A stretch of 64,000 nucleotides of DNA. Origin: Phycisphaeraceae bacterium. GTDB lineage: Bacteria > Planctomycetota > Phycisphaerae > Phycisphaerales > Phycisphaeraceae. Numbering within the stretch: the first letter of the stretch is position 1; every line of letters starts with the position of its first letter. A model generated the notes under the pieces. The model was not told where the DNA came from and did not search any database. It saw only the letters and a program-made list of their open reading frames with translations. Position numbers and translations under genes: made by a program. The stretch covers positions 230,912 through 294,911 of the forward strand of contig JAVKCD010000019.1 in NCBI GenBank assembly GCA_040222855.1, read 5' to 3'. Positions 17,577 through 49,451 of this stretch are shown here, in pieces.

Positions 17577-17621
17577 GACTGTTTTTTGATCTGCTTACCG
17601 GCTTGCCTGGAGGATTTCGAG

Positions 17622-32800: not shown

Positions 32801-33233
32801 CGCAGGTGTGCGGTGTGGAGCTGGTGTTGGCTTCGATGCGCCAGCACCAGGCGGTGTCGTTGGGGTGGAGGTGGAGGGTGCAGTTGATGTCGAGGTCATG
32901 GGAGCGGAGTGACCAGCGGGCGTGGTCTTCGGCGACGGCGAAGGAGCTGTTGGAGGCGGGGCCGGTGAGTGGGACGGCGTGGATGCCATCGGGCTTGTGG
33001 ATGCGGAGGTAGAGTCGGCTGATGGCCCCGCGGAGCGGATCGGCGAGCATCTGATTGATGAGCAGGCCATCGTGTTCGATGGCGTGGATGACGCCGTTGG
33101 GCTGGAAGGTGATGCTCAGGCCGGCGGCGTTCTCGATCCGGCGTAGGGGCATGGTGGCTTCGGAGCGCAGGGTGCGCCGCGAGCGGACTGGCTCGGTCGT
33201 GGTGGTGTTCGGGATGTCGGCGACTGGTTTCAT
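29835..33233 (-). CDS. GH94 family glycoside phosphorylase, long form (candidate 1,2-beta-oligoglucan phosphorylase)
   Basis: 1132 aa with no signal peptide. The GH94 catalytic-centre motif RYGHGDWNDSL is present, along with an (alpha/alpha)6 region (GGAWGVRDVCQGPVELLLALG...PDGDWPQWF) and ...HGGWRIYSSGPGIF.... Its size matches the long GH94 sophoro-oligosaccharide phosphorylases rather than ~800-aa cellobiose phosphorylases. Confidence 0.8.
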   Translation of the reverse strand: MKPVADIPNTTTTEPVRSRRTLRSEATMPLRRIENAAGLSITFQPNGVIHAIEHDGLLINQMLADPLRGAISRLYLRIHKPDGIHAVPLTGPASNSSFAVAEDHARWSLRSHDLDINCTLHLHPNDTAWCWRIEANTSSTPHTCDVILVQDIALTMRDAVLINEAYASQYLDHQIHSDANLGPVLLTRQNRPQKGRRHPWLAQACITGAVGCLTDTHQFFGRTSRATGQPERLNANLIGTAVRQHESACLAQQAAPAEVTNNNPAQWLFAASFSPDHPQISSEDDLNLLTNLSIWAQQASPRSPVSTARIDRHRLDQLSILQAQSMTDSELADHFPGPWRHEEHHNQTLLSFFHDHDAHVVTRAKEMLTERPHGHILRAASSLMPTRKELSTTVWMHGVFASHLTIGNTVFHKLLPVARSPLDITRRGGLRIAIHTGNEWQLLAVPSAMEIRRQQSRWIYKAPQTILTIRTYANNNGPDINCEIQAQGEPVRLLLFADPILGNIENENTIQLDIDPEAGQLALSPATTTSDLRLILQTQDPSTIDNIGGDELLFADGRSRNLPVVAITTKPTNNFAITLSADHNAAGHDTSNNPQHDLWSTLDADRTLTHSDPAITRLNDALPWMIHNAVIHLASPHGLEQYTGGAWGVRDVCQGPVELLLALGKTHEVRDILLRVFAQQQPDGDWPQWFMFDGYEHIRTADSHGDIIVWPLKALAAYLEASGDHAILDQTLPFYGEDNQPPATILQHIKRALSKINNQTVNGTALVRYGHGDWNDSLQPARPELRDHLVSTWTCELLAQAAAELADTLHQLRPDLPLAEELDTLSSNIRRDLAKHLRPSGVVAGLGYAHENPLRFEPILHPEDTRTGQRLSLIAMTRGILSGVLNREEALHHLDLIEEHLLAPDGARLMDCPPDYHGGLERFFQRAESASAFSREIGLMYVHAHLRYAEALARLGRADQLLHALLQINPIGLNHTVPNANPRQANAYFSSSDADVADRHEASRRYPDIMAGKVPVHGGWRIYSSGPGIFVSVVLRSLLGWNQTHQALLLDPVLPDRLDGLQHTFTRNNQRITCTYRVGTQGYGPQTVLLNGEKIPNLTRQPHPYRQGGLLIPWDRLKTSPGTALKLEVHLP

Positions 33234-34586: not shown

Positions 34587-34596
34587 CTGTAGAAGG

Positions 34597-34610
34597 AGAA
34601 ACCGCTTACA
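34597..34610. promoter_or_regulatory. LacI-type operator candidate (site C, weak left half)
   Basis: AGAAACCGCTTACA lies 11 nt upstream of the GH144-like start codon. The right half-site GCTTACA is identical to sites A and B. Confidence 0.35.
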
Positions 34611-34651
34611 TCTAGAGACACATGGACAGAGCGATTGGTTGATGCGTTGAT

Positions 34652-35650
34652 TCAGGAGCAACCGCAGGTTTTTCGGGCGACGAAGCGAGTCGGGACGGAG
34701 GGGGTCCAGTCGTCATCGGGCGACTGTTTACGGAGTTGCATGAGGGCGGCCTGGACGGCTAGTTCGCCGAAGGCGCGCATGGGGACGTTGACGGTGCTGA
34801 GGTCGAGGTGTCGTGCCATGGGTTCGTCGTCGAAGCCGATGAGTTTGATGTCTTCGGGGACGCGGACGCCGGCGTGGCGGAGGGCGTCGAGGGCACCGAT
34901 GGCCATGCGGTCGTTGAGGGCGAAGATGGCGTCAGGCATGGGCTTTCCGGCTTCGAGTCGCTCGCTGACGGCGCGGTACCCGCTGTCTTCGCGGAAGGAG
35001 CCGTGCCAGAGGGCATCGGGTGGGAGTCGGATGTCGGCTTCTTTGGCGGCTTTTCGGCAGCCGAGGATGCGTTGGCGAGAGTCGGAGGAGTCGGAGGGTC
35101 CGGTGATGACGGCGACGGATTGGCAGTGGTGTTGCACGAGAAGGTGGCGCATGGCCTGGTAAGCGCCGGTGGCGTTGTCGATCTCGACGACGAGGCTGTC
35201 GCAGTGGTCTGCGGGTCGGTCCATGAGGACGACGGGGACGCGGGAGGTGTCAAGGTTTTCGAGTAGTTCGCCGGGGAGCTGGAGGTTCATGACGACGAGG
35301 GCATCGACGCGGCGTTCCATGACGTATTGGCGGACGAGTCGGACGCCGTCGGTCGGGCTGTGGCCGAAGGCGAAGACGGCTTCGTAGCCTTCGCGGGAGG
35401 CTTCTGCGGAGATGCCTTTGAGGACCTCGGCGAAGAACCCGCTGTCGAGGTCGGGGAAGATGACGCCCAGGGTGTTGGTGGCGTGGCTGGCGAGGGATCG
35501 GGCGGCGTAGCTGGGGGCGTAGTTGAGGTCGGCGATGGCTTTGAGGACGCGTTGTTTGGTGGCATCGGAGACGGGGGCGGTTCCGTTGAGGACACGGGAG
35601 ACGGTGGCGATGGAGACGCCGGCGCGTTTTCCGACCTGCTCGAGGCTCAT
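34652..35650 (-). CDS. LacI family transcriptional regulator
   Basis: MSLEQVGKRAGVSIATVSRVLNG...V....RV..A...L.Y HTH followed by a sugar-binding core. Confidence 0.9.
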   Translation of the reverse strand: MSLEQVGKRAGVSIATVSRVLNGTAPVSDATKQRVLKAIADLNYAPSYAARSLASHATNTLGVIFPDLDSGFFAEVLKGISAEASREGYEAVFAFGHSPTDGVRLVRQYVMERRVDALVVMNLQLPGELLENLDTSRVPVVLMDRPADHCDSLVVEIDNATGAYQAMRHLLVQHHCQSVAVITGPSDSSDSRQRILGCRKAAKEADIRLPPDALWHGSFREDSGYRAVSERLEAGKPMPDAIFALNDRMAIGALDALRHAGVRVPEDIKLIGFDDEPMARHLDLSTVNVPMRAFGELAVQAALMQLRKQSPDDDWTPSVPTRFVARKTCGCS

Positions 35651-35804: not shown

Positions 35805-36347
35805 TCAGGTGCCCGAGGGGTAGCGGAGGCGGACTCTGAGTCCCTGGCCCTGGAAGATGGCACCGGAGGCGTCGATGCGGAGGAGGGTGAAGCCGTCGAG
35901 CTGGTCGCCGGGGCGGAGGCGTTGGTTGTCGATGAGGACGATCCCCCCTCGGGCGTCGCGGAGGAGGGCCTGGAGTTTTCGGGTGGAGAGGAACTGGCGT
36001 GCGCGGTCTTCGGGTGTCTGGGTGGCGTTGTAGGTCTGGGGTCCTGGGGTCTGTTGGGCGGCTGGGTCGGTGAGGGCCGAGACGGCGAAGGGGTTGCGGG
36101 GCTGGTCGGTGTCGGGTTGCTGAATGCGACCGGCGACCCGGAGCAGTTCGGCGAGGGAGCCGATCGACTCGGTGAGGGTTGGCGTCGCTGGTGACGTGTT
36201 GGGTGAGGTGGGGGTGGCTGAGCTGAGGATCGAGATCGCTTCGGCGGGTTGGGGGTCGCTGGCTCCGCGGAGGACGAAGTGATCCAACCCGAGGGCGCTG
36301 ACGGCGAGTGTCATGACGGCGATGAGGATAGAGCGTTGTCGGGTCAT
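35805..36347 (-). CDS. Membrane-anchored GspC/PilP-like protein (last gene of the secretion/pilus operon)
   Basis: N-terminal TM (ILIAVMTLAVSALGL), a Pro/Thr-rich linker, and a C-terminal ...GGIVLIDNQRLRPGDQLDGFTLLRIDASGAIFQ... beta-domain pattern like the GspC-HR/PilP secretin-interacting domains. Its start overlaps the upstream stop by 4 nt. Confidence 0.5.
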   Translation of the reverse strand: MTRQRSILIAVMTLAVSALGLDHFVLRGASDPQPAEAISILSSATPTSPNTSPATPTLTESIGSLAELLRVAGRIQQPDTDQPRNPFAVSALTDPAAQQTPGPQTYNATQTPEDRARQFLSTRKLQALLRDARGGIVLIDNQRLRPGDQLDGFTLLRIDASGAIFQGQGLRVRLRYPSGT

Positions 36348-36955
36348 GGGGTGGCCTCCGGGTTGGTGGCCGTGATGAGGCCGGAGGCGATTCTGTCGGT
36401 TGGCGGGGTGGCGTACCAGGTCATGCCGAGGGTGAGGGTCATGGGGCTGTCGGATGCGGTGGGCGTGTCGCTGGCTGTGGAGAGGTTGAACTCGGTGATG
36501 CGTAGGTCGGGGAAGTCGGAGCCGAGGCGGTCGAAGAGCTTGCGGGCGTTGGTGTAGGTCGCGCTGGTTTGGGTCTGCAGGGGAACGATGACAAAACCAT
36601 CCTGCAGAGCTGGGTCGGCGGGTTCGATGCGTTCGGCGCGGTGGTCGAGTTGTTTGAGGAGATTGGCGAGGTCGCGGAGTCTTCGGTTGAGGGCGTCGGC
36701 GGTCAGGAGTTGGTTGGAGCCTTCCTGAGTCAGCAGCAGCAGGTCATCGCGTTGTTTTTCGACGCTGCGGAGTTCGGTCTGCGATGTGGCGAGGGCTGCT
36801 TCGGTTTCCTGTTGCTGTTGGCGGGCGATCTCTGCGGCGGTGTTGCTGAGGATGGACGAGATGACAAACCCGCCTGTGACGAGGATGGCCAGGAGGATGA
36901 CCGCGCCCAGGGCGTCGAGTTGCGAGATTTTGAGGGGTGGGTTGTGTTTGGTCAT
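36344..36955 (-). CDS. PilO/GspM-like bitopic membrane protein
   Basis: Short cytoplasmic N-terminus, one TM (LGAVILLAILVTGGFVISSIL), a coiled coil (EIARQQQQETEAALATSQTELRSVEKQRDDLLLL) and a C-terminal alpha/beta domain. The call rests on position and architecture only. Confidence 0.5.
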   Translation of the reverse strand: MTKHNPPLKISQLDALGAVILLAILVTGGFVISSILSNTAAEIARQQQQETEAALATSQTELRSVEKQRDDLLLLTQEGSNQLLTADALNRRLRDLANLLKQLDHRAERIEPADPALQDGFVIVPLQTQTSATYTNARKLFDRLGSDFPDLRITEFNLSTASDTPTASDSPMTLTLGMTWYATPPTDRIASGLITATNPEATP

Positions 36956-37530
36956 TGCTCGCCTCCGCGTTCTGCCATGAGCGCGAGGATTCGGAATCGG
37001 ACGCGTTCGTCATTGGGATCGAGGCGTCGTGATTCGTCGATCATCACGCGTTGGAAGAGGCCGGTTGCTTCGAGGCGTACGGCGTAGTCGGAGACCGAGG
37101 CGGTGTCGCTGGCGTTGCCTTCGAGGTCGATGCGGGCTTGTTGGAGCGGTTCGGTGGGTGAGGCTTCGGATGGTGTTGCCAGGCGCAGGGAGCGGAGGAC
37201 GATGAGATCGCCCTGGACGGCGGCTAGGGCGTCGAGGAGGAGGCCCCAGTTGGGGTGGTGCCGGATGATTCTCGCGCTGGCCGTCTGCTCGTGGAGGCGG
37301 GCGTGTTCGGCGCGGACGGTGATGATCTGGGCGTTGACCTTGGAGAGTTTTGACTGGAGGTTGGCGAGGGTGGCTCCCTGCTCGGGTTGTTGCTGGGAAG
37401 CCCAGACGACGCCTACGGTGGCGGCTGTGCCGGCGAGCGCGATGATGGTGATGGAGGTCCATCGCTGGAGCCTGCGGCGGAAGCGGCGTAGCTCGATTCG
37501 GTATTTCGGGATGAGGTTGCCGTTGCTCAT
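36952..37530 (-). CDS. PilN-like (fimbrial assembly) protein
   Basis: NLIPKYRIELRRFRRRLQRW followed by a TM and a coiled coil, the canonical PilN N-terminus. The ATG at 37528-37530 overlaps the pilM stop (ATGA). Confidence 0.6.
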   Translation of the reverse strand: MSNGNLIPKYRIELRRFRRRLQRWTSITIIALAGTAATVGVVWASQQQPEQGATLANLQSKLSKVNAQIITVRAEHARLHEQTASARIIRHHPNWGLLLDALAAVQGDLIVLRSLRLATPSEASPTEPLQQARIDLEGNASDTASVSDYAVRLEATGLFQRVMIDESRRLDPNDERVRFRILALMAERGGEQ

Positions 37531-38528
37531 GCGGCGGCCCTCCATCCGGATGCAGCCAGGGCGAAGGCGAGCTCGGTGCCGGGTTGCGGGTCGTTGGTGT
37601 TCTGGGAAATGTCGGCTTCGATGGTGCGTGCGAGGTGCTCGGCGACTTGCGGGTAGCGTGCTCCGCCGCCGGTGAGAATGATTCTCGGTCGATCATCCTG
37701 GCTGCCGAGACGGCTGACGTAGTTTTTGCAGACGGCGGTTTCTTCGGTGACGAGTCCGGCGTACTGCCTGATGGCTTTGGTCAGGGTGGGATCATCTTGC
37801 GTTGGGGTTTCGCTGGATTGAGTCTGCTTGAGTAGTTCGTGGACGGTGGCGAAGGGTTGTCCGGCGGTCTCGGCGACGGTGGCGAAGAGGGTTTCTAGGC
37901 CGGCGGGTTCGATGGTGCGTTCGTAGACCACGCTGCCTGAGAGGCAGGCGATGACGCGGCAGGCGCTCCAGCCGAGGTCGACCAAGAGGGTCAGGCCGCG
38001 CTCGGTGTTGTCGTTGACCAGGGTCGTGGCGAGCGCGAGGGCGGGGACTTCGATGCGCTGGGTGTCGAAACCGGCCTGGGTCATGCTTTCGATCAGCTTG
38101 TCTGCGTGCGCGTGTTCGAGCACGTAGGACATGATCTGCTTGCGGCCTTTGGCGCCTTCGGCTGGTTCAGCGCGGTGCAGGGCATACTCGAAGCCGGTGG
38201 GCTCGATGCGGTGAAGCCTTGACAGGGCCATCCGCGCGGCTTGTTCGGCGGCGACGGGGTCTGACGCTGAGGGGAGTTCGACGATCGAGCTGTGCAGGTG
38301 TTCGATGGGTGCGGCGAGGACGCATGATCGACCGTGGAAGCCACGGAGTGTCATCAGGCTATCGAGCTTGCGGTACCAGGTGGCATCGTCGGTGTGGTCG
38401 GGCCGTGTGATTGAGAGTGAGGCGGAGATGCGCGGGTTGGTCGCGCTGCCTGAGAGTTGGACGGCTTTCACCTGACGGGTGCCGAGGTCGAGGCCGATGG
38501 GTGATCGTCGTGAGAGGTGGAGGTTCAT
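37527..38528 (-). CDS. pilM: PilM-like actin-fold pilus/secretion assembly protein
   Basis: The IGLDLGTRQVKAVQL phosphate-1-like motif, a length of ~330 aa, and a position directly after gspF and before the pilN-like gene. Confidence 0.75.
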   Translation of the reverse strand: MNLHLSRRSPIGLDLGTRQVKAVQLSGSATNPRISASLSITRPDHTDDATWYRKLDSLMTLRGFHGRSCVLAAPIEHLHSSIVELPSASDPVAAEQAARMALSRLHRIEPTGFEYALHRAEPAEGAKGRKQIMSYVLEHAHADKLIESMTQAGFDTQRIEVPALALATTLVNDNTERGLTLLVDLGWSACRVIACLSGSVVYERTIEPAGLETLFATVAETAGQPFATVHELLKQTQSSETPTQDDPTLTKAIRQYAGLVTEETAVCKNYVSRLGSQDDRPRIILTGGGARYPQVAEHLARTIEADISQNTNDPQPGTELAFALAASGWRAAA

Positions 38529-39754
38529 CAGTTACCTCCTGCGCTGGCGGTGAGGTCGAACAGCGGGAGGAAGAGACTCACGGCGACGGCGCCGACGAGC
38601 AGGCCGATGAAGACGAGGACGGCGGGGCCGAGCATGTTAAGGACGGCTTTGAGAACGATCTCGTTGTCTTCGTCCATAAACTCGGCGACGGTGATCAGGA
38701 GTGTGTCGGTGGTGCCGGTCTCTTCGCCGTTCTTGAGGGCTTCGTAGAGCGAGACGGGGATGAGTTCGGTGCGGCCAAAGGATGTGCTCAGGGGTGATCC
38801 CTGGGCGGTGGCTTCTTCGGCGCGTTCGAGGAGGGCCTGGTAGTGATGGTTGCTGACGGTGGTTCGTGTGAGTCTTAGGGCGTCGAGGAGATCGACGTGG
38901 CTGGCGAGCAGGACGCCGAGGAGTCTCGCGATCCGAGCGCTGACGAAGCCTTGTGTGACGGTCTTGACCAGAGGGGCTCGGACCAAGAGGGTCTGGACGT
39001 GGCTGCGGCCGATGTCGGAGGCGAAGTAGCGGACGATCCCCGCCACGATCACCAGCAATGCGGGGACGATTCCCCACCAGTAGGCGGTGAAGAGTTCGCT
39101 GGAGACGATCATGGCTTTGGTGAGTGGCGGGAGCGGGACGTTCATGGTTTCAAAGAGGGTCGAAAACCTGGGCAGGACCACGCTGATGAGCATGGCGACC
39201 ATGCCGAAGCCGACGAAGAGGACCATGATGGGATAGGTCAGAGCGCCCTGGACCTGGCGGCGGAGGTGGAGTTGGTTGTGGGTGAGTGAGCCGAGGCGGG
39301 CGAACATGTCATCGAGTTTGCCTGAGCTTTCGCCAGCGGAGACGAGGCTGCAGGCGATGGCGTCGAAGTAGCGGGGGTGCTGCTCCATGGCTTCGGACAT
39401 CGGGATGCCTTCTTCGAGGCGTTCTCTGATCTTGACGAGCATGGCACGCCAGGCGGGATCGGTGGACTGTCGTTCGACGGCGTTGATGGCGGTAACCAGT
39501 GAAGCGCCGGACTTGAGAAGCACGTGGAGGTGTCGTGCGAAGGAGGCGACGAGTCGGAGCCGTTTGTTGGTAGAGACATACTGCCAGCCGGTCTTGCGCT
39601 TGGCGGTCTTTTTGCCGGCCTTGACCGGCTGGAGGTCGGTTGCGAAGAGGCCTTTGCGATGCAGGAGGTCAGCGGCCTGCATGGCGTCGTCGGCTTCGAT
39701 GATGTCGCTGACGACATGTCCGGAGGCGTTGAGGGCCTGGTAAGCGAGTTTCAT
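38528..39754 (-). CDS. gspF: Type II secretion system F family platform protein (GspF/PilC)
   Basis: Two T2SSF repeats (e.g. LLKSGASLVTAINAVERQ and LLASHVDLLDALRLT), three TM segments and a length of 408 aa. Confidence 0.9.
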   Translation of the reverse strand: MKLAYQALNASGHVVSDIIEADDAMQAADLLHRKGLFATDLQPVKAGKKTAKRKTGWQYVSTNKRLRLVASFARHLHVLLKSGASLVTAINAVERQSTDPAWRAMLVKIRERLEEGIPMSEAMEQHPRYFDAIACSLVSAGESSGKLDDMFARLGSLTHNQLHLRRQVQGALTYPIMVLFVGFGMVAMLISVVLPRFSTLFETMNVPLPPLTKAMIVSSELFTAYWWGIVPALLVIVAGIVRYFASDIGRSHVQTLLVRAPLVKTVTQGFVSARIARLLGVLLASHVDLLDALRLTRTTVSNHHYQALLERAEEATAQGSPLSTSFGRTELIPVSLYEALKNGEETGTTDTLLITVAEFMDEDNEIVLKAVLNMLGPAVLVFIGLLVGAVAVSLFLPLFDLTASAGGN

Positions 39755-41499
39755 GCGGCCCTCCGTTCCTGCTCGCCGGGAGACTGGGCGTCGAGCATGT
39801 CGTCCTGAGTGACGCGGAGGGCTTCTTCGAGGCTGGTTTGGCCTTCGACGGCGAGGCGGACGGCTTCATCGCGGAGGGTTTTTCCCCCGATTTCCCGCCA
39901 GGCTTCGCGGAGGACGTGGGTGGGTTCAGCGCGGTGGACCATGCGTCGGAGGGCGGGGACGATTTCCATGACTTCGTAGACGCCGAGGCGTCCTTTGAAG
40001 CCGGAGTTGTGGCAGCTCTCGCAGCCAGCGCCCATGTGGAAAGCGCGGCTCTTGTCGGGATCGAGCCCGGCGTCGCGGAGGACGTGGGGCTCGGGGTAGT
40101 AGCGGGTTTTGCAATCGGGACAGACGCGTCGTGCGAGGCGCTGGGCAACGACGCCATTGATCGCACCGGAGAGGAGGTAGGACTCGATGCCCATGTCGAG
40201 CAATCGGGAGACGGCGCCGGGCGCGTCGTTGGTGTGGAGGGTGGCGAGGACAAGGTGACCGGTGAGGGCGGCCTGAACGGCGACACGGGAGGTCTCGTCG
40301 TCGCGGATCTCACCGACCATGATGATGTCGGGGTCCTGTCGGAGAATACTGCGTAGGGCGCGTGCGAAGGTCATGCCGATCTGGGTGTGGACCTGGATCT
40401 GGTTGATGAGGTCGAGCTGGTATTCGACGGGGTCTTCGACGGTAACAAGGTTGGTCTCGGGGCTGCGGAGGAGTTCGAGGGCGGAATAGAGGGTCGTGGT
40501 CTTGCCGCTGCCGGTGGGACCGGTCACGAGGACGAGGCCGTGGGGCTGCTTGAGCATGCGTTTGAAGGCGTCGAGCTGTTCTTCCTGAAATCCGAGTTGT
40601 TCGAGACGGATGCGGAGATTTTCCTTGTCGAGGATTCGCATTACGAGCTTCTCGCCGAGGAGAGTCGGCATGCTGGACACACGGATATCGATCTCGCGGC
40701 GTTCGGCGACGATCCGGATTCGTCCTTCCTGGGGGAGTCGTTTCTCGGCGATGTCCATGGACGCCATGACCTTGATTCGTGAGGAGATGGCGGCGTGCAT
40801 GCCGGATGGCGGGCTCATGAGTTCGCGGAGCATGCCGTCGATGCGGTAGCGGATGCGTGTGCCTTTTTTCTCGGGCTCGACGTGGATGTCGCTGGCACCG
40901 TCGCGGATGGCGGTGAGGAGGGCGAGATTGACAAGGTTGATGATCGGGCTGCCGGTGGCCATCCGGTCGAGGTCGGTAACGGGGCCTTCATCGACGGCTT
41001 CCTGCTCAACGAGTGTGACGTCGGACTCGGCGAGTGAGGTGAGGAACTGGTCGACATTGACGTCGCCGGAGCTGTACTTGTCGATGAACTCGCGAATGTT
41101 GGCTTCGAGGGCGAGCACCGGGCGGACCTGGCAGCCGGTGATCTGGCGGATCCTGTCGATGGCTGGGAGAGAGTGCGGGTCGGCCATGGCGACGGTGAGG
41201 GTGCCGTGGACTTTGAACATCGGGATGGCGATGAGTCGTTCGCACTCTTCGACGCCAAGAAGCTCGAAGAGCTCGGGGTCGATCAGGCCGTGGCGGAGTT
41301 GGCAGCCGGGCATTCCCTGAACACGGGCGAGCGCGTTGATGAGGGTGTTGGCTTGGATGACGCCTTGTTCGACAAGCACTTCGCCGAGTTTTTTTCCGCC
41401 CGTCTGCCGGCGCAGCGCATCGGAGAGCTGCTGTTCGGAGAGGTGACCTCCGTCGAGCAGGACTTCGCCGATGCGCTTGGGTGGTCCTGTGTCACTCAC
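39751..41499 (-). CDS. gspE: Type II secretion / type IV pilus assembly ATPase (GspE/PilB family) with an N-terminal MshEN/T2SSE_N domain
   Basis: Walker A (GPTGSGKTTTLY), Asp box, Walker B, His box (TGHLVLATLHTND) and a tetracysteine cluster (CPDC...CESC). The N-terminus has RIGEVLLDGGHLSEQQLSDALRRQ / LGEVLVEQGVIQANTLINALARVQ repeats. Confidence 0.92.
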   Translation of the reverse strand: MSDTGPPKRIGEVLLDGGHLSEQQLSDALRRQTGGKKLGEVLVEQGVIQANTLINALARVQGMPGCQLRHGLIDPELFELLGVEECERLIAIPMFKVHGTLTVAMADPHSLPAIDRIRQITGCQVRPVLALEANIREFIDKYSSGDVNVDQFLTSLAESDVTLVEQEAVDEGPVTDLDRMATGSPIINLVNLALLTAIRDGASDIHVEPEKKGTRIRYRIDGMLRELMSPPSGMHAAISSRIKVMASMDIAEKRLPQEGRIRIVAERREIDIRVSSMPTLLGEKLVMRILDKENLRIRLEQLGFQEEQLDAFKRMLKQPHGLVLVTGPTGSGKTTTLYSALELLRSPETNLVTVEDPVEYQLDLINQIQVHTQIGMTFARALRSILRQDPDIIMVGEIRDDETSRVAVQAALTGHLVLATLHTNDAPGAVSRLLDMGIESYLLSGAINGVVAQRLARRVCPDCKTRYYPEPHVLRDAGLDPDKSRAFHMGAGCESCHNSGFKGRLGVYEVMEIVPALRRMVHRAEPTHVLREAWREIGGKTLRDEAVRLAVEGQTSLEEALRVTQDDMLDAQSPGEQERRAA

Positions 41500-41843: not shown

Positions 41844-43313
41844 TTATCCCACGACCGCGGCGCCGACCACGGCGGGGAGGCTCAGGGTGAAGGTGCTGCC
41901 CTCGCCGGTAATCGAGGTGACGGTGATGTCCCCGCCATGGAGGCGTGCGATGTCCCGGGCGAGGCCCAGGCCGAGTCCGGTGCCGGTGATGCCCTTGGTG
42001 CGTGCATCGTCGGTGCGGAAGAAGCGATCGAAGATGCGCGGCAGGTTCTCTTCGCTGATACCGATGCCGGTGTCGACGACACGGACGGAGAGTTTGCCGT
42101 CGGCGACATCGGCTTCGACGGTGACGGTGCCAGACTCGGGTGTGTACTTGATGGCGTTGCCGACGAGGTTGTGGATGGCCATGAGGAGCTTGTCCTGATC
42201 GCCGGTGAGATTAGGAAGCCTTGGAGGGAGATCGAAGCGGAGGGTTTGCTTCTTGGATTCGGCCTGAGGTCGATGGTCCTTCTCGACCTGTTGGAGGATC
42301 TTTTCGAGGTGGACATCATCGCGGCGCAGGCTCATGGCACCGGCTTCGATCTCGGAAACCGAGAGCATGTCCTGGACGACCCGCTCGAGGCGGCCGGACT
42401 CGGTGTTGATGACGTTGAGGCACTCGCTGCGGGTTGCGGGGTCTTTGTCGCCGTGCTCGATCGCGGTGTCGATGTGCAGTCGGATGTTAGTCAGCGGGGT
42501 GCGTAGCTCGTGGGCGGCTTGGGCGAGGAAGGCGCTGTGGGCTTCCTGAGCGACGCGTTGCTGGGTGATGTCTTCGATGATGACGATGGCGGCTTCGTTG
42601 TCGGATCGTCGGGACGGGCGGGTGATAAAGCGGAGGACGCCGGTGCCGCCTTCTTCGCGCTGATCGACTTCCATGATGCCCCGGCTGTAGCCGCGACTGA
42701 GTGTTGCCCTGCGGGCGGCATCGAGTACGCCCTCGTAGGTGATCAACTCGGCCAGGGGTGTTCCGGTGCAGCCTTCGGCGTCTTTCTGTAGGAAGGCGGC
42801 GGCAGCGCCGTTGGCGTAGGTGACGCGGAGCTCATCGTTGATGAGGACCATCCCGCTTTCGATGGCTTCGCAGGCGGCACGGAGCGACCCGCCAGCGGCT
42901 TGGCGGCGGTCGGTTTGCTGCTGTGCCTCGTGAACGAGTTTGCCGCTGCGGAGTGCCTGGTACTCATCCAGGAGGCGGTTCCAGTTTTGCGCCTCGCGTC
43001 CAAAGGATTCGCCGAGTCGGAGTGTTTCGGTTTCGAGGTCATCGCCATCGAGGTCGGCGAGGGCTTTTCTCAGGAGTGCGGGGGCGAGGAGGTGCCTGCG
43101 TATGAGCAGAAGGCTCGTGGCTAAGCCCGCGAGTGCTAACCCGCCCAGGGCGGCGGGCATCCAGGCGCTGGTGCTGAACCAGCCCCAGGTGAGAGCGGCG
43201 ATCAGGACCAGCAAGCTGGCGATGGTGCTGATGATCGCAGCGGGCGGCTCGCCGGGCAGTAGCCAGCGTCCGAATAAATCTCCCAGGTTCTCTCGTCGGC
43301 CCTTGTGTGCCAC
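41844..43313 (-). CDS. Membrane sensor histidine kinase with a PAS domain
   Basis: Two N-terminal TMs, a PAS-like segment (IESGMVLINDELRVTYANGAAAAFL), the H-box AAHELRTPLT, the N-box LVGNAIKYT, and the G-boxes DTGIGI and GTGLGLGL. Confidence 0.9.
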   Translation of the reverse strand: MAHKGRRENLGDLFGRWLLPGEPPAAIISTIASLLVLIAALTWGWFSTSAWMPAALGGLALAGLATSLLLIRRHLLAPALLRKALADLDGDDLETETLRLGESFGREAQNWNRLLDEYQALRSGKLVHEAQQQTDRRQAAGGSLRAACEAIESGMVLINDELRVTYANGAAAAFLQKDAEGCTGTPLAELITYEGVLDAARRATLSRGYSRGIMEVDQREEGGTGVLRFITRPSRRSDNEAAIVIIEDITQQRVAQEAHSAFLAQAAHELRTPLTNIRLHIDTAIEHGDKDPATRSECLNVINTESGRLERVVQDMLSVSEIEAGAMSLRRDDVHLEKILQQVEKDHRPQAESKKQTLRFDLPPRLPNLTGDQDKLLMAIHNLVGNAIKYTPESGTVTVEADVADGKLSVRVVDTGIGISEENLPRIFDRFFRTDDARTKGITGTGLGLGLARDIARLHGGDITVTSITGEGSTFTLSLPAVVGAAVVG

Positions 43314-43547: not shown

Positions 43548-43994
43548 ATGATGTTCAGGTACCGTGCGGGATTCAGTCTGATTGAACTGATTGTGGTGCT
43601 GGTGATTCTCGCGGTGATCGCGGCGATTGCGATCCCGAGGATGAGTCGAGGTGCGAACAACGCAGACATCACAGCGATGCAGGCTGACCTCGCGGTGCTG
43701 CGAGGAGCGATCGAGCTCTACCGTGTTGAGCACACCGGGTACCCGGTACTGGCGGACATCAAGTCTCAGCTCACGGGCAAGACGGACAAGGACGGGACGA
43801 TCAACACGTCGGGTGCTTATGGCCCATACATCGCGGTGATCCCGCCTCTGAAGACGGGAGCCAAGGCCGGCGAGGTTGATTTCGCGGCCCCGGCGGCGAT
43901 CCCGCCTGCGGCTGAGGTCGATGATGTCGGCTGGTTGTACGACGCGGCGTCGGGCTCGATCTGGGCGAATGACAGTACTCACTTCGATAAGTGA
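43548..43994 (+). CDS. gspG: Major pseudopilin (GspG-like) with a prepilin-type N-terminus
   Basis: AGGAG Shine-Dalgarno; FRYRAGFSLIELIVVLVILAVIAAIAIP...MQADLAVLRGAIELYRVEHTGYP. Confidence 0.85.
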   Translation: MMFRYRAGFSLIELIVVLVILAVIAAIAIPRMSRGANNADITAMQADLAVLRGAIELYRVEHTGYPVLADIKSQLTGKTDKDGTINTSGAYGPYIAVIPPLKTGAKAGEVDFAAPAAIPPAAEVDDVGWLYDAASGSIWANDSTHFDK

Positions 43995-44039: not shown

Positions 44040-44531
44040 ATGGATGGTTTGACGGCCTCGATGCAGCGTGAGACCCGGAGTTCGCTCCGAGCCTTCACGC
44101 TCATCGAGGCCGTTTGCGTGCTGGTGATTATGGCGGCGCTGGTGGGTGTGGCTGCTCCACGGTACGCGGCGTCGCTGGAGCGGTATCGGTTGGATCTCGC
44201 GGCGCGGCGGATCGTGAGTGATCTGGCGTACGCCAAGACTCATGCACGCAGGACCAGCACCACCGTGAAGCTGACCTTTGATACGAGCACGGACCGGGTC
44301 CTGGGCACAGGCTTGCCTCAACCGGGCAAGCCAGGGGAGAGCTACAGCCTGTCGCTCGGAGATGATCCGTTTCTGGTGGGCTTCTCAGGGGTTGATCTGG
44401 GCGGGGACGTGGCGATTGTGTTCAATGGTTATGGGGACCCGGACTCGGGTGGTCAGATCAAGCTGATCGCGGGGAGCCGAGAGTTGATCATCGACGTGGA
44501 CCCCACGACGGGCCAGGGGGTAATCCAGTGA
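44040..44531 (+). CDS. Minor pseudopilin, GspH/FimT-like
   Basis: RAFTLIEAVCVLVIMAALVGVAAPRY...LDLAARRIVSDLAYAKTHA pattern of the GspH family. Confidence 0.7.
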   Translation: MDGLTASMQRETRSSLRAFTLIEAVCVLVIMAALVGVAAPRYAASLERYRLDLAARRIVSDLAYAKTHARRTSTTVKLTFDTSTDRVLGTGLPQPGKPGESYSLSLGDDPFLVGFSGVDLGGDVAIVFNGYGDPDSGGQIKLIAGSRELIIDVDPTTGQGVIQ

Positions 44532-44995
44532 GTTGTCGGTATCGTCGCGGACTGACGCTGATTGAGCTGATGCTGTCGTTGTCGATCGCCGGTCTGCTGG
44601 TGGCGGGGATGACGGCGTCGCTGACGTTGTCGATCGATGCTGCGGAGATGGCGACGATCGACTCGGCGGGTCCGGATCAGGCGGCGAGGGCGCTGGAACT
44701 GGTGCTGGCTGATCTTCAGCAGTCGATCCGGCTTGATGAGTATGGCAGCCAAGTATTCCTGATGACGCCTGATCGGACTGTGCCTGCGGACGGGTTGTCT
44801 GAGTCGGTGCTCTACCTCTGGTCGGGAACGGCTGGTGACTCACTGACGCGGGTCACCAACAACGGGACGACAGCGACGATCGCTGAGGACGTGAATCTGT
44901 TTGAGATCGAGATCGACACGCGGACGATCCCGGCCAAGGCGGTGACGGACACGGCCAACCCGCTGTCGTGGGGCTATTTCTTTACTGTTCGTTAG
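44528..44995 (+). CDS. Minor pseudopilin (GspJ/PulJ-like)
   Basis: RRGLTLIELMLSLSIAGLLVAGMTASL prepilin-type N-terminus; 4-nt overlap with the upstream gene. Confidence 0.65.
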   Translation: MSCRYRRGLTLIELMLSLSIAGLLVAGMTASLTLSIDAAEMATIDSAGPDQAARALELVLADLQQSIRLDEYGSQVFLMTPDRTVPADGLSESVLYLWSGTAGDSLTRVTNNGTTATIAEDVNLFEIEIDTRTIPAKAVTDTANPLSWGYFFTVR

Positions 44996-45003
44996 GGTCG
45001 AGG

Positions 45004-46176
45004 ATGAATACGCCAGCCAGCTTGGATGAGCGACGCGAGCCACGCCGTAGGCCTCGGGCGGGGCGAGGGTTCACGCTGGTGGAGACGATTCTGGCGGCGG
45101 TGATCGTGAGCCTGACGGTGGTGGCTGCGCTGTCGTCGGTGGCTGCGGTGGCTCGGACCGAGCGGATCGGTCTGGACTCGGCGCAGGGTCACTTCCTGGC
45201 TCAGTTGCTGATGTCTGAGGTTCTCGCTTGCCATTATTCGGACTTGAGCTTTGCTCCGGGGAGCTTCGGGCTGGGTGCGGGTGAGAGCCAGAGCGATCGG
45301 ACGACGCTCGATGATATTGATGACTACCACGGCCTAGTGGAGTCGCCGGTGACGTATGCCGACGGCACGGCGGTACCGGGTGCAGCGGGATGGAGCCGGC
45401 GTGTCTCGGTGACTCGGGTCAATGGGAGTACCTTGGGACTGAGCGGGAGTGACACGGGGTTGCGGAAGATCGTGGTGCAAGCGGTGTCGCCGTCGGGGGC
45501 GGTGACTGAGCTGCAAGCACTGATGAACCTCAACTCGAATCTCAGCGAGAGGGGGTTGTATGAGCGCACGGTGCCGGCGGTGGCTCGTGTCCGGGTCCGA
45601 TCGGGCGACGCGAACAAGCTGACGCTGGCTGCGGCGCTGCCGCTGCTGAACGAGCCGACTGCAACCACCAACCTGCTGAAGAACCCGGGATGGGAATCGG
45701 GTGCGAGCAACTGGTATTCGCCGGAGACTTTGCAGGCGTACTTCGACCTCAACGGGATCACGGTGTCGGGCGGGTTGTATCGGGAGGTTGATGCCGCGTG
45801 CGATCTTGAGATCAAGGACGATGGTGAAGAGCATAGCGGGGCCTTCTACCTGAAAACCAAGAGCAGGTCATGGAACGATACTGGGCCTGCCCAGGTGATT
45901 ACCGACGTGTTTCAGGTCGGGGTGACGTACTACACGGAGGTCTGGGCATCGACGGACGACACGCAACGGGTCTATATGGTGCTGCTCTATGGCGACGACA
46001 AAGGGGACTACCGGCTGGAGACATCACAAACGCGTGTGGTCGAGAAGACAGGCTGGAAACGGGTGACGGGCAGTTTTACGGTTCCGAGTATCACGGGGAG
46101 TCTGCGGTACGCGGTCTGGCGGGTTGAGACGACGCTTGACAAAGACATCTTGTTCGATGATGCGGTGCTGCGATGA
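45004..46176 (+). CDS. Minor pseudopilin fused to a C-terminal CBM4/9-like carbohydrate-binding module
   Basis: Start at ATG 45004. GRGFTLVETILAAVIVSLTVVAALSSV prepilin-type N-terminus with a GspI-like body. From ~aa 222 it reads NLLKNPGWESGASNWYS...GAFYLKTKSR...VGVTYYTEVWAS...GWKRVTGSFTVP...ILFDDAVLR, the typical CBM_4_9 sequence pattern. Confidence 0.7.
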   Translation: MNTPASLDERREPRRRPRAGRGFTLVETILAAVIVSLTVVAALSSVAAVARTERIGLDSAQGHFLAQLLMSEVLACHYSDLSFAPGSFGLGAGESQSDRTTLDDIDDYHGLVESPVTYADGTAVPGAAGWSRRVSVTRVNGSTLGLSGSDTGLRKIVVQAVSPSGAVTELQALMNLNSNLSERGLYERTVPAVARVRVRSGDANKLTLAAALPLLNEPTATTNLLKNPGWESGASNWYSPETLQAYFDLNGITVSGGLYREVDAACDLEIKDDGEEHSGAFYLKTKSRSWNDTGPAQVITDVFQVGVTYYTEVWASTDDTQRVYMVLLYGDDKGDYRLETSQTRVVEKTGWKRVTGSFTVPSITGSLRYAVWRVETTLDKDILFDDAVLR

Positions 46177-47498
46177 GTGGTCCTGCCCCCCTGCTGAGGA
46201 AGTCTGCGTTGCCGCACCCCTGCGCGAGGCGTGGGGCGGTGTACATCCTGGTGATGATGGTGGCGGCGCTGGTGGCGGCGTTGGGGGTGGCGGCGGTTGG
46301 GAGCGCACGGCTGGGGCTCAAGAGTTCGGACGCGACGGCACGAGCCGGGAGCGCGCGGCTGCTGGCGTTGTCGGGGCTGGAGCAGGCAAGGTGGTTCATC
46401 GATCAGACCGTGGCGATTGAGGCTTCGGGCGGGGCGAGTTGGCGGAGCAGCTTCACCTCGGGTGCCTGGGTCTCAGACCGGACGATGGGTGAGGGGACAT
46501 TCACCTGGCGGCTGGTGGATGAGGATGGTGATCTTGAGGACGATCCTTCGGAGGCGTTCACGATCGAGGCGATCGGCACGATCGGGGAGAACCGGCACCT
46601 GATGAGCGTGCGGATGACGCCCGGCGAGAGTGATGAGCCGATCTCGGCGTTGAACGCGGCGGTCACGGTGGGCGGGAACATCCGTGTCGAGGATGACGTC
46701 TGGCGATCGGGATACACCATGCACGCCAACGGCAACTTCACGGCGAATAACAAGGACGTTCGACCGCAAGCAACCGCGAGCGGCAATATCTTTGGGAATA
46801 TTTTCTATGGCGGGGCCGCGAGCAACCAGACGGCGCTGACGATGCCTGATCCATCGAGCGTTTTTGATTTCTATATCGCGCACGGGACGGATATCCCGCG
46901 AACCTCACTGCCGATCTCAGGCGGGGCGCGGACGATCAAGGACCGGGTGCTGAGCCCGGCGTCGAACCCGTTCGGGAGCATCAACAGCCTGGGCATCTAT
47001 GTGATCGATCTGGAGAACCTCGACAAGATCTCGATCGAGGACAGCCGGATCGTCGGGACGCTGGTGGTGCTGAACAGCGCGGATGGTTCGGAGGTGGTCG
47101 AGACCGTGACCTGGGAGCCTGCCGTGTCGAACTATCCGGCGCTGATGGTGAAAGGGAACTTTGAACTGAGGTTCAGCAGTGACTCGACTCTGTCGGAGGG
47201 CCTGACCAAGAACTACAACCCTCCGGGCACACCTTATCGGGGCATCAGTGACATTCTCCCCCTGGGGTCATTTCCGTCGGTGCTGCGTGGGCTGGTGTAT
47301 GTGTCAGGAAATCTGACGATTGAGAACAACGACTGCTACACGGAGGGTCGATTCATCGTGGGCGGGGATCTGCTGGTAGATCGTGACTGGTATCACTACG
47401 CGTTGGCGCTCTGGCGGAACGACCCGCCGCCGGGCTTCAGGACGATGACGGGGCCGCCGGTGATGGTTCCCGGGAGTTTCACGCAGCAAATCGATTAA
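46173..47498 (+). CDS. GspK / PilX-N-terminal-like large minor pseudopilin
   Basis: RRGAVYILVMMVAALVAALGVAAVGSARLGLKSS....ARLLALSGLEQA matches the PilX_N/GspK N-terminal pattern. It is followed by a ~350-aa domain of unknown fold. Its start overlaps the upstream stop by 4 nt. Confidence 0.5.
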   Translation: MSGPAPLLRKSALPHPCARRGAVYILVMMVAALVAALGVAAVGSARLGLKSSDATARAGSARLLALSGLEQARWFIDQTVAIEASGGASWRSSFTSGAWVSDRTMGEGTFTWRLVDEDGDLEDDPSEAFTIEAIGTIGENRHLMSVRMTPGESDEPISALNAAVTVGGNIRVEDDVWRSGYTMHANGNFTANNKDVRPQATASGNIFGNIFYGGAASNQTALTMPDPSSVFDFYIAHGTDIPRTSLPISGGARTIKDRVLSPASNPFGSINSLGIYVIDLENLDKISIEDSRIVGTLVVLNSADGSEVVETVTWEPAVSNYPALMVKGNFELRFSSDSTLSEGLTKNYNPPGTPYRGISDILPLGSFPSVLRGLVYVSGNLTIENNDCYTEGRFIVGGDLLVDRDWYHYALALWRNDPPPGFRTMTGPPVMVPGSFTQQID

Positions 47499-49039
47499 GC
47501 GGCCTGGGGTACGGTCTCGAAGTCGCTGAGGCTCTTGTGCTCGTCGAGCATCATGTCATAAGGACGCAGGTCAATCCGGAGGAAAGCCTTGGCCATATCG
47601 GGGTCGAACTGGCTGCCCGCACAGCGTTCGATTTCCGCGATCACCTTCTCCCGATCCAAGGCGGCGCGATAAGAGCGGGTGGAGCTCATCGCGTCGAAGG
47701 TGTCGGCGAGGGCGAGGATGCGGCCATAGAGCGGGATGCTGTCACCCGTGAGGCCCTGGGGGTAACCGCGGCCGTCGTAGCGTTCGTGATGCGTGAGCAC
47801 GCCGTCGCGGACATCATCCAGTGGCGGGACGTCCTTGAGGATGCGGTAGCCGATCTCGGGGTGCTTCTTGATCTGCTCGAACTCCTCGTCGTCGAGACGG
47901 CCGTTCTTGAGGAGCACGCGTTCGGGGACGCCGATCTTGCCCACATCGTGCACCAAACCGGCGATGCGCACGCGCTCGGCCTCGTGCTCGGAGAGCCCGA
48001 TCTTCCGGGCGATCTGCTGGGAGATCAGTGCGACACGTTCGGAGTGACCGCGGGTGTAGGGGTCCTTGGCGTCCAGCGAGGCGGTGAGCGCCTTGAGGGT
48101 GCCGATGAACATCGCCTCCTGCTCGGCGAAGCGTGCGAGGTTCTCGTGATAGGTCCCGAGAAACTCGCTGGTGGCGTCGAAGAACTGCACCTCGACGCTG
48201 GAGACGTCTTCCTCATCACCCTTCCGGTTGCCCGCTGCGATGATCCCGACCACGTCGTCATCGTGATGGATCGGTTCGGCGAGGATGACGGTGTTGGCCA
48301 GCTCGGCCAGAGGGTGGGTGTCGGGGTCGAGGACCCGGCTCCATGAGTCGGCTTTGATCGAGTCCACGGTCTGCGTGAGTCGCTCGCGGAACTGCTCATG
48401 GTCACAGCCCATCTCGCCCGCGATGATCTGAAAGCCCGCCAGCTGGGGCACGGACGACTTGGTGCTGAATGCTAGCGCCACCCAGTCAAACGGCTGGATC
48501 GACAGGATCTGCCGTACCATGGCTTCGAGACTCTGGCGGGGTTCCTCGGTGGCGTTGAGCATCCGGGAGACGCGGTAGATCAATCGGGTTTCTTCGTAAG
48601 ACTGGATGAGCTTGCTGCTGAACTCGTCCATCGCCTCGATGTCGCTGAGGGATTCGGCCTGATCTTCGTAGAGCCATCCAAGCAGCGTGGAGAGTCTTGC
48701 GTTGTCGGGGGGATGGGTGCTGAGGAGTCGTTCCGCAGACGGGTCGATCGCCAGGCTCTTGTGGATTCGCTGGTCGAGGGCCACGGCGACCAGGGGTTTC
48801 GCGGCGTCTTGTCCGATCAGGAAGAGCGTGCAGCCGGGCCGGGGTTCGATGGTGCGCTGTGTGTCACCGGCCTGCCATCCGGTGATGGCTTCTTGGACAA
48901 AGACATCCAGTGAGTCCGGGAGAACGATGTCATCTGGCTCAGGCCAGAGACGCTGGGCGGCTTGATCACGAGCGGACCAGAGCGCGAGGCCCAGGGTGGA
49001 GCATCGTTCAATCAAGGTGTCGAGCATCATCTCGTGCAT
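47495..49039 (-). CDS. GAF-domain HD-GYP phosphodiesterase (c-di-GMP hydrolase family)
   Basis: HSERVALISQQIA...LVHDVGKIGVP...KKHPEIG...HHERYDGRGYPQGL are the HD and GYP motifs, with a GAF-like region upstream. The start is ATG 49037-49039 (MHEMML), 13 nt after the receiver gene's stop. Confidence 0.85.
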   Translation of the reverse strand: MHEMMLDTLIERCSTLGLALWSARDQAAQRLWPEPDDIVLPDSLDVFVQEAITGWQAGDTQRTIEPRPGCTLFLIGQDAAKPLVAVALDQRIHKSLAIDPSAERLLSTHPPDNARLSTLLGWLYEDQAESLSDIEAMDEFSSKLIQSYEETRLIYRVSRMLNATEEPRQSLEAMVRQILSIQPFDWVALAFSTKSSVPQLAGFQIIAGEMGCDHEQFRERLTQTVDSIKADSWSRVLDPDTHPLAELANTVILAEPIHHDDDVVGIIAAGNRKGDEEDVSSVEVQFFDATSEFLGTYHENLARFAEQEAMFIGTLKALTASLDAKDPYTRGHSERVALISQQIARKIGLSEHEAERVRIAGLVHDVGKIGVPERVLLKNGRLDDEEFEQIKKHPEIGYRILKDVPPLDDVRDGVLTHHERYDGRGYPQGLTGDSIPLYGRILALADTFDAMSSTRSYRAALDREKVIAEIERCAGSQFDPDMAKAFLRIDLRPYDMMLDEHKSLSDFETVPQAA

Positions 49040-49052
49040 CGGCGGTCCATCA

Positions 49053-49451
49053 TCAGGCCGCGGCGGCGGCCGAGCCTTCTTCCAGCCCCAGGGTCTCGCG
49101 GACTGCGGCATCGAGTTCCGAGCCGCTGAGGGGTTTATCCAGCAGCGTGCGGATGTTGGTTGAGACCATCTCGCTGTGGGAGAGCCGGTGGCTCCGGGCC
49201 GTCAGCATGATGACCGGGGTCTCGGCGGTGGCCTCTTCCTGCGCTAAAGCAACAGCTAGCTCGAGCCCGCTCATCAGCGGCATCTGGTAATCCGAGACCA
49301 CCAGCGAGGGTCGCTCGGCACGGATCAGATCCAGGGCCTCTTTTCCGTTGAACGCGGTCAAGACCTCCAGCCCGAGCTGCTTGAGCCGGAAGGCCAGGAT
49401 CTTGGTGATGTGCCGCTCGTCATCAACGACAATGACCTTGTGTGAAGCCAC
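49053..49451 (-). CDS. Stand-alone response-regulator receiver (CheY-like)
   Basis: KVIVVDDE...LVVSDYQMPLMSGLEL...PVIMLTA...K, i.e. the acidic pocket, phospho-acceptor Asp, and conserved Thr/Lys positions. Confidence 0.88.
   Translation of the reverse strand: MASHKVIVVDDERHITKILAFRLKQLGLEVLTAFNGKEALDLIRAERPSLVVSDYQMPLMSGLELAVALAQEEATAETPVIMLTARSHRLSHSEMVSTNIRTLLDKPLSGSELDAAVRETLGLEEGSAAAAA

Follow-up and report, generated by a model that had tools for sequence, protein, structure and literature searches.

The sequence analysed here (hereafter the window) is a 64,000-nucleotide stretch of a Phycisphaeraceae bacterium genome (Planctomycetota; contig JAVKCD010000019.1, positions 230,912 to 294,911), and the gene in question, 45004..46176 on its + strand, encodes a protein of 390 aa plus stop which we describe as a putative modular minor pseudopilin with a C-terminal carbohydrate-binding module (CBM). 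The gene is intact and conserved, it carries a prepilin motif, it lies in a pseudopilin operon, and its CBM is recognised in sequence as well as in fold. Four parts follow one another on the + strand: a class III (prepilin) leader peptide (aa 1-22; 45004..45069), Arg-rich and ending in Gly22, which was read directly from the sequence; a mature pilin module (aa 23-216; 45070..45651), delimited by an AlphaFold2 (AF2) model, HMMER, and the PilV/GspI/XpsI matches of family members; a linker EPTATT (aa 217-222; 45652..45669), which is variable in length and poorly conserved in alignment A1 and coincides with the step from low to high model confidence (pLDDT); and a beta-sandwich of the CBM_4_9 superfamily, CBM22/CBM16/CBM4-like (aa 223-390; 45670..46173), identified by Pfam, by profile search of PDB sequences and by Foldseek. 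Pilin module, short linker and C-terminal CBM together make up the layout by which modular pilins have been defined (PMC8179133). The initial annotation had placed the module at 45667..46173 (aa 222-390), in agreement with the boundaries found here.

The CBM assignment is solid as far as sequence comparison and modelling reach, because the Pfam and profile matches agree with the fold obtained from AF2 and Foldseek. In Pfam, CBM_4_9 (PF02018) matches the window protein at 40.3 bits (cut-off 25.9; E = 5.1e-10) and is found in 12 of 13 members of the fusion family, with a best E of 2.2e-21. The profile of the fusion family, searched against PDB sequences, reaches 4xup (the CBM22-1/CBM22-2 tandem of Paenibacillus Xyn10C) at 5.2e-22, 2zex (CBM16 of Man5A) at 9e-15 and 1dyo (CBM22-2 of C. 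thermocellum) at 3e-7, followed by weaker matches to CBM4-2, CBM61 and the CBM4 of laminarinase 16A. The AF2 model was built on an alignment of 13 sequences (prediction from the single sequence gave a pLDDT of 35 and was unusable), and its mean pLDDT is 70, rising to 83-90 for aa 221-390. Against PDB, Foldseek matches this model to CBM22, CBM16, CBM4-2 and CBM61 at E values from 4e-9 to 2e-6, the best targets being 4xup, 4xun and 4xuo (E ~4e-9; target TM 0.75-0.79; root-mean-square deviation 2.2-3.0 A). The CBM_4_9 pattern that the initial annotation had read in the C-terminal half is therefore borne out, well above what chance would give, both by the PF02018 score and by the jelly-roll matches. 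A lineage-specific insertion of ~22 aa (about aa 241-262; 45724..45789, + strand) is seen in alignments A1 and A4, where it sits after the first CBM strand; it is shared with the closest relative, P0001, and absent from the other members of the fusion family.

The N-terminus reads ...RPRAGRG|FTLVETILAAVIVSL, a basic leader with Gly22 at -1, followed by Phe23 at +1, Glu27 at +5 and then a hydrophobic helix. In other words, ...RPRAGRG|FTLVETILAAVIVSLTVVAAL has the features of a class III signal: a short basic leader that ends in Gly, a hydrophobic alpha1N and Glu at +5. Glu27 hardly varies within the fusion family and does not vary at all in the pilin-body alignment A3, 126 of 150 family representatives show the prepilin motif (with a median leader of ~15 aa ahead of the motif), and PF07963 (N_methyl) matches 10 of 13 fusion relatives at E < 0.01. 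The claim of a genuine prepilin N-terminus holds for the motif itself, G22|F23 with E27, but not for the models, since on the window protein both PF07963 (19.4 bits; cut-off 21.2) and TIGR02532 (14.3 bits; cut-off 16.3) fall marginally short.

In the AF2 model, the pilin module consists of an alpha1 helix (~aa 25-79) and a small beta-sheet (aa 131-175; pLDDT 75-85), followed by a conserved hairpin segment (aa 177-216) of low model confidence that ends in 'LLNEP'. A hallmark of the pilin family is the acidic motif D-D-I-D-D-Y (aa 103-108; 45310..45327, + strand), which in the form D-D-x-D-D-Y is found in 140 of 150 family representatives, D104, D106 and D107 being invariant in alignment A1; judged by its residues, it may be a metal site of the pilin body, possibly for Ca2+. 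The GspI-like body that had been proposed for this protein is weakly supported. When 62 members of the pilin-body family were scanned singly against NCBIfam at E < 0.01, PilV was matched by 33, GspI by 17, XpsI by 11 and GspH by 10, with best E-values of ~1e-6 on the GspI and PilV models and mostly the N-terminal helix covered; the window protein itself scores 16.3 bits on TIGR01707 GspI against a cut-off of 44.35, over aa 22-52, which is the N-terminal helix only. The profile of the 62 members matches the alpha1N helix of assorted pilins among PDB sequences and nothing beyond it, so no solved I subunit was detected by this search and a choice of I over J is tentative in structural terms; in Foldseek, the listing for the whole model was saturated by CBM matches. 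From these matches 'I/PilV-class' appears to be the best label for the pilin body, as a label and not as an established membership.

The two halves belong to one gene. The uninterrupted ORF (open reading frame) extends over 44968..46176 on the + strand and offers three start candidates, GTG at 44968 (402 aa), ATG at 45004 (390 aa) and TTG at 45022. ATG 45004 is conserved at the orthologous locus L001 and is therefore taken as the probable start; the NCBI annotation of the orthologue P0001 begins at the TTG, 6 codons downstream. The choice is uncertain by a few codons and alters the length of the leader only. P0001 (384 aa; 95% identical), recorded as 'MAG: carbohydrate binding domain-containing protein [Phycisphaeraceae bacterium]', was the single match of a word-indexed homologue search, to which P0035 was added when a profile was used as query, and the gene order on its 226-kb contig is identical. 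In a codon comparison of the window gene with this 95%-identical orthologue, dN/dS is 0.16 over the whole gene, with values of 0.18 (pilin half) and 0.13 (CBM half) for its two parts; purifying selection acts on both the pilin and the CBM.

More distant relatives were collected by an exhaustive HMMER search against 1.84 billion representatives, which gave 2,210 matches at E < 1e-3 and 1,192 at E < 1e-10. Nearly all of them span aa ~14-220 alone and are 165-230 aa long, while about 11 representatives of 342-371 aa match both halves and can be aligned with the window protein over the full length (26-36% identity). The same fusion is thus present in about 11 divergent clusters (50% identity) and in a second genome locus, L002. 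In these proteins the junction is conserved as 'LLN.P', 3-5 residues and then 'NLL.NPGFE.G...W', and the C-terminal 'DD..L' is kept as well. The 95%-identical orthologue, the divergent relatives and the dN/dS of the two halves (0.18 and 0.13) all agree with a single-gene fusion, as the initial annotation had it, and the survey of its distribution places the fusion within a large, mainly Planctomycetota pilin family.

To be more specific on this family, a scan of species-representative genomes with a 5-sequence alignment as query returned 30 loci, mostly short members without a module, and one further fusion (L002). About 26 of the 30 are explicitly from Planctomycetota, including Phycisphaerae, Pirellulaceae, Planctomycetaceae and the cultured Botrimarina colliarenosi; one record has no classification, and the four weakest loci belong to other phyla. 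In the Planctomycetota loci the gene immediately before the family member always encodes another pseudopilin (148 to ~600 aa), and where this was checked (L001, L002) a K-like protein is encoded downstream of the family member. Modules other than the CBM occur on the same pilin body. For example, P0019, P0052 and P0076 carry a C-terminal PKD domain (E down to 1e-20), and P0112 and P0140 carry a module of ~110-220 aa ('ILFVV...SPTPQE...') of no assigned family; such alternative modules on one pilin body are as expected for a carrier pilin, judging from sequence. In a neighbour-joining tree of the pilin bodies, which is too poorly resolved to count fusion events, the CBM forms fall among 'mid-length' forms of ~210-220 aa. 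A degenerate DNA pattern (DDxDDY...NLLxN...E) applied to metagenome contigs gave two chance matches and no fusion.

The gene is the fourth in a compact + strand operon of five prepilin-type genes, neighbouring genes of which have 4-base stop/start overlaps. The first encodes a GspG-like major pseudopilin of 148 aa (43548..43994), with N_methyl at 33 bits and TIGR01710 GspG at 48.9 bits, below cut-off; among PDB entries the PulG/GspG pseudopilus 5wda matches it best (7e-9), with just the N-terminal half covered. The second is a GspH-like minor pseudopilin of 163 aa (44040..44531; Pfam GspH PF12019, 23.3 bits, cut-off 21), and the third, in the J-like position, a minor pseudopilin of 155 aa (44528..44995) with N_methyl at 28 bits and weak Verru_Chthon C and HpsC matches. 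After the CBM pilin comes a pseudopilin-like protein of 441 aa in the K-like position (46173..47498), which has no Glu5 and a weak GspK N-terminal match; this position is conserved in L001 and L002. The gene order is therefore H, J-like, I-like, K, and where loci were compared the pilin body, with or without a CBM, is always encoded by the fourth gene, between the J-like and the K-like one. This agrees with the place given to it in the initial annotation, as the fourth gene of a pseudopilin operon, with GspE/F/PilMNO-like genes adjacent.

The J-like position is itself variable. It is occupied by 155 aa in the window and by 551 aa in L002 (6311-7966, + strand), where the protein has a C-terminal extension of no assigned family, and among Planctomycetota (L002, L005, L010, L012, L018, L021-L023, L025) lengths between 148 and ~600 aa are found, so that extra mass is gained and lost by a second minor pilin of the set too.

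Genes for the assembly of a type-4 filament are found on the - strand at 35805..41499, divergent from the pseudopilin operon. They encode, by profile scan, a GspE/PilB ATPase with an MshEN domain for cyclic di-GMP (c-di-GMP) (39751..41499; PilB 603 bits and GspE 586 bits, both below cut-off), GspF/PilC (38528..39754; GspF is the best match for this platform protein), a PilM-like protein (37527..38528), PilN (36952..37545), a GspM/PilO-like protein (36344..36955) and a T2SSB-like protein (35805..36347). The model of the MshEN c-di-GMP-binding motif matches the ATPase at 51 bits (cut-off 38). Between the assembly genes and the pseudopilin operon lies a histidine kinase (41844..43313, - strand), and the operon is followed by an HD-GYP phosphodiesterase (47495..49111, - strand) and a response regulator (49053..49451, - strand), a pair which also follows the operon in L002. 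The HD-GYP protein and the response regulator are probable c-di-GMP control elements, and the MshEN ATPase together with the histidine kinase, HD-GYP and response regulator suggests a filament whose assembly is gated by c-di-GMP. Pilins co-encoded with a GspE/F-type machine are likewise present in L001, L002 and other Planctomycetota loci. In L002, which is a Planctomycetota metagenome-assembled genome, the order is E-F-PilM-...-T2SSB-like-G-H-J-like (551 aa)-CBM pilin-K-like-response regulator-HD-GYP, and near the pseudopilin operon there is a gene (13145-17056, - strand) for a giant secretin, 1,303 aa long and containing 11 repeats of Secretin_N, which may be an unusually long periplasmic conduit.

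Genes of glycan metabolism adjoin the filament assembly genes. They include a GH94 beta-1,2-oligoglucan phosphorylase of the SOGP type (29835..33233), a PF10091 'glycoamylase', i.e. a glucanase, found by profile scan (33237..34661), and a LacI regulator (34652..35650) that directly abuts the assembly genes, all on the - strand; 29835-35650 looks like a unit for the utilisation of beta-1,2-glucan. GH5, GH30, dockerin and PEP-CTERM proteins are encoded further on. Amid these dockerin/PEP-CTERM and GH5/GH30 genes there are further prepilin-like proteins of the N_methyl/DUF1559 type, at 5831-6763 (- strand), 13674-14456 (+ strand) and 26570-27391 (- strand).

The initial annotation had also seen the same CBM pattern three times in secreted proteins at 16924..19055. 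This was not supported: Pfam finds no CBM there, BLASTP is non-significant, and hhalign, at a probability of 11-18%, aligns no more than the ~25 residues at the start. What the proteins at 16924-17529 and 17586-19055 share with the module is the short opening motif 'NLL.NP...W' only. The region (16924-19055, + strand) encodes two secreted-looking proteins of repeated ~150-aa units that start with 'NLL.NP...W' and end with 'R[VI]E..WDADL'; one of the two has a weak dockerin and a PEP-CTERM tail, and no Pfam family is assigned. To judge from their sequence, the units may be an undescribed beta-sandwich repeat. At the level of base composition, the window shows a very strong GC skew over 14000-48000 that is independent of the coding strand (+ strand G:C ~2:1; skew +0.2 to +0.44). 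For example, 22001-24000 contains 914 G and 356 C, and yet the gene that Pfam supports there lies on the - strand. On either flank (2000-13000 and 50000-64000) the skew turns negative.

From the above, we consider it probable, with real doubt left, that the gene encodes a modular minor pseudopilin of a Planctomycetota type-4 filament, either like a type II secretion system (T2SS) or like a type IV pilus (T4P), which carries a glycan-binding CBM at or near its tip and is regulated by c-di-GMP. The intact ORF in a translationally coupled operon, the beta-glucan-active neighbours (GH94 SOGP, PF10091 glucanase, GH5, GH30) and the binding of dextran by pili-like fibres of Planctomycetes (PMC5394234) support this reading. 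As to how the protein would act, we infer its processing, tip location, glycan binding and ligand from what is known of the H-I-J-K complex and from the precedent of PilC (PMC9934059). Prepilin peptidase would cut the 22-aa leader at Gly22|Phe23, and the alpha1 helix would hold the protein in the inner membrane. The CBM pilin would join the H, J-like and K-like minor pseudopilins in a priming complex, which comes to lie at the tip of the filament as the GspE/F/PilMNO machine polymerises the GspG-like major subunit beneath it. Because the CBM is tethered to the pilin by a linker of six residues, it should be displayed at or just below the tip, and there it would most likely bind a glycan chain, probably beta-linked, leading to adhesion of the filament to polysaccharide or to its capture. 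Control of filament assembly would probably lie with c-di-GMP, by way of the ATPase's MshEN domain, the neighbouring HD-GYP protein, the response regulator and the histidine kinase.

Several findings weigh against this reading. The two prepilin models and, by far, the GspI model are below cut-off on the window protein, as is the GspG equivalog (48.9 bits) on the major subunit, and the window ORFs that were scanned include neither a secretin gene nor one for a prepilin peptidase. Few members of the pilin family carry the fusion (~12 of the top 150 representatives), and the adjacency of glycan genes is common to the near-identical L001 and not to L002. Glycan binding by the CBM pilin is predicted from sequence and fold, and the aromatic pair of the cleft appears to be kept only in part. 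Among the lower-ranked Foldseek matches are proteins that do not bind glycans, namely Fbs1, Stig cyclases and Cry/Vip toxins, and some CBM16-like domains are without demonstrated sugar binding (PMC5651945); the fold alone is therefore no proof of sugar binding. Finally, should the machine prove to be a classical T2SS, its pseudopilus may stay in the periplasm.

The last point leads to the strongest competing explanation, which we think unlikely and yet take seriously. It holds that the operon builds a short T2SS pseudopilus within the enlarged planctomycetal periplasm, and that the CBM-like module acts inside the envelope and is no surface adhesin; the module might then bind periplasmic glucans or peptidoglycan, or recognise cargo that is glycosylated or bound to glycan, for which the neighbouring dockerin/PEP-CTERM glycoside hydrolases would be an example. 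The major subunit is indeed closest to GspG/PulG, the platform protein to GspF, GspM-like and T2SSB-like proteins are present, and near the operon no retraction ATPase of the PilT type was seen. However, the Gsp equivalog scores are all below cut-off, PilM/PilN-type proteins stand in place of GspL, and the genes scanned do not make up the full set of a classical T2SS, to which the secretin GspD, GspC and GspL/M would belong; the PilB score of the ATPase is slightly above its GspE score (both being below cut-off), and the PilM/PilN/PilO-type alignment proteins are T4P-like. The secretin of the L002 relative, with its 11 periplasmic N-domains, fits a periplasmic pseudopilus, and so do the adjacent beta-1,2-glucan genes, since periplasmic glucans are of the beta-1,2-glucan type. 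Against it, the ATPase is of the MshEN c-di-GMP type, which is linked to adhesive pili and is typical of MSHA pili, and the carbohydrate-binding modules known so far on pilins are adhesins. With neither secretin nor prepilin peptidase found in the scanned ORFs, and with a major subunit that is PulG/GspG-like over its N-terminal half only, the machine may build either a secretion pseudopilus or a surface pilus.

A second and more doubtful explanation, which we regard as improbable, is that the module is a CBM by ancestry only. Its role would then be other than glycan binding, for example contact within the tip complex, docking of substrate or secretin, or priming and stabilisation of the filament, and it would be interchangeable with PKD and other modules. 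The cleft was mapped by adding the CBM16-1 sequence to the fusion-family alignment, with W20, W125, Q81, Q93 and Q121 as the cleft residues. The equivalent of W125 is W372 in the window protein and is aromatic in 7 of 11 relatives, that of W20 is Pro240, directly before the ~22-aa insertion, and is aromatic in 6 of 11, and the equivalents of the polar positions Q81, Q93 and Q121 vary across the fusion family. The cleft residues are thus not conserved across the family, which speaks for a CBM by ancestry only; but CBMs that differ in specificity normally vary at these positions. The ligand specificity cannot be read off from the sequence of the module. Likewise, the same carrier is found with PKD or unassigned modules, most members have no module at all, the fold is common to non-lectin proteins, and CBM16-like domains without demonstrated sugar binding exist (PMC5651945). 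On the other hand, the membership in CBM_4_9 is strong (2.2e-21 for the family) and the closest solved relatives (CBM22, CBM16, CBM4 and CBM61) are all bona fide glycan binders.

That the protein is an artefact (a pilin gene and a secreted CBM gene joined by a sequencing or assembly frameshift, or an ORF that is not expressed) is so improbable that we take it as excluded, because about 11 divergent relatives align end to end with a conserved junction and 12 of 13 have CBM_4_9, and the same uninterrupted architecture is seen in an independent assembly (95% identity), with the gene order kept in L002 and low dN/dS (0.13-0.18) on both halves; no support for it was found, though the GC-rich window has many spurious long ORFs.

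The preferred reading, a glycan-binding minor pseudopilin at or near a filament tip, can be carried further, to a speculation that is probably wrong in at least some respect and that we offer as a long shot. The filament would be specific to the phylum and gated by c-di-GMP, the I/PilV-class tip pilin would serve as an evolutionary 'socket' for exchangeable effector modules (CBM, PKD and others), and the CBM versions would be the molecular basis of the polysaccharide-binding fibres of Planctomycetes, catching glycan chains with the fibre tip and bringing them to the cell surface or into the periplasm, where the glycoside hydrolases and phosphorylases encoded nearby would use them.

Compared with known systems, the carrier resembles GspI/PilV in its prepilin N-terminus with Glu5, its small alpha/beta body and its operon with H-, J- and K-like pseudopilins. 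It differs in gene order, which is H-I-J-K there and H-J-like-I-like-K here, and in size, the body being ~100-120 aa in GspI/PilV and ~195 aa (mature) in the window protein, which has in addition the DDxDDY motif, an extra hairpin and the C-terminal module. The module shares with CBM22 (Xyn10C/Xyn10B; 4xun, 4xuo, 1dyo) and CBM16 (Man5A; 2zex, 2zew) the beta-jelly-roll, the 'NLL.NPGFE.G..W' start and the 'DD..L' end. However, those modules ride on glycoside hydrolases and the window module on a pilin, identity is 14-22%, the cleft residues are partly conserved and the ~22-aa insertion is added. In cellulolytic bacteria (Ruminococcus albus, Fibrobacter succinogenes and Caldicellulosiruptor pilins) the concept is the same, a type-4 filament that attaches to polysaccharide; to our knowledge, binding is ascribed there to the pilins or fibres themselves, with no recognisable CBM fused to a minor pilin.

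The initial annotation knew of no characterised CBM-tipped pseudopilin, and this stands to the extent that a full-text literature search found no paper describing a characterised pseudopilin with a CBM4/9/16/22. It does not stand in a broader sense, since a lectin pilin (PilC) is characterised and the pair of domains is already catalogued; the class of architecture is known, the exact domain pair is on record, and this is no new type of system. Presumably, IPR003305 is the InterPro entry for Pfam PF02018. Modular pilins have been defined, with more than 1,200 of them in 264 architectures that include the carbohydrate-binding modules PF13385, PF13620 and PA14, and IPR012902-IPR003305 (prepilin plus 'Carbohydrate-binding, CenC-like') is listed seven times in Dataset S1 of that study (Raynaud et al. 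2021, PMC8179133). This architecture has the same two signatures as the window protein, and the comparison is one of signatures alone, as the seven proteins are counted and not described in the dataset.

A question about glycan attachment in this phylum has been open since gold-labelled dextran was seen on pili-like fibres of two Planctomycetia, the mechanism being left open (Boedeker et al. 2017, PMC5394234). The concept of a fibre that binds polysaccharide is the same here, but those fibres come from Planctomycetia, not Phycisphaerae. If the window protein does bind a glycan at the tip, it would be a concrete and clonable candidate for the way in which polysaccharide-degrading Planctomycetota (Phycisphaerae) attach to glycans or fish for them. 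What the locus adds is its origin in an environmental diderm phylum, a carrier pilin that is widespread and changes its modules, and a candidate for glycan-binding fibres that can be put to the test.

A close parallel is PilC of Streptococcus sanguinis, a minor pilin modelled in a tip complex whose lectin module binds glycans (Shahin et al. 2023, PMC9934059). The two proteins are alike in having a class III signal and pilin module, a short linker and, at the C-terminus, a beta-sandwich that belongs to a carbohydrate-binding superfamily; their genes lie among those of other minor pilins, and a position in the tip complex is expected of both. They differ in the superfamily of the module, which is ConA-like (SSF49899) in PilC and CBM_4_9 (CBM22/16/4-like) in the window protein, and in the carrier, since the pilin moiety of PilC is atypical and is partnered by the I-like PilA, whereas in the window protein the carrier itself is I/PilV-class. 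The binding of sialylated glycans and glycosaminoglycans by PilC is demonstrated, while that of the window protein is predicted from sequence and fold. PilC belongs to a T4P of a monoderm, host-associated bacterium and the window protein to a T2SS-like filament of diderm Planctomycetota; if our reading is right, the modular pilin principle would reach beyond host-associated Gram-positive pili and into a diderm phylum from the environment.

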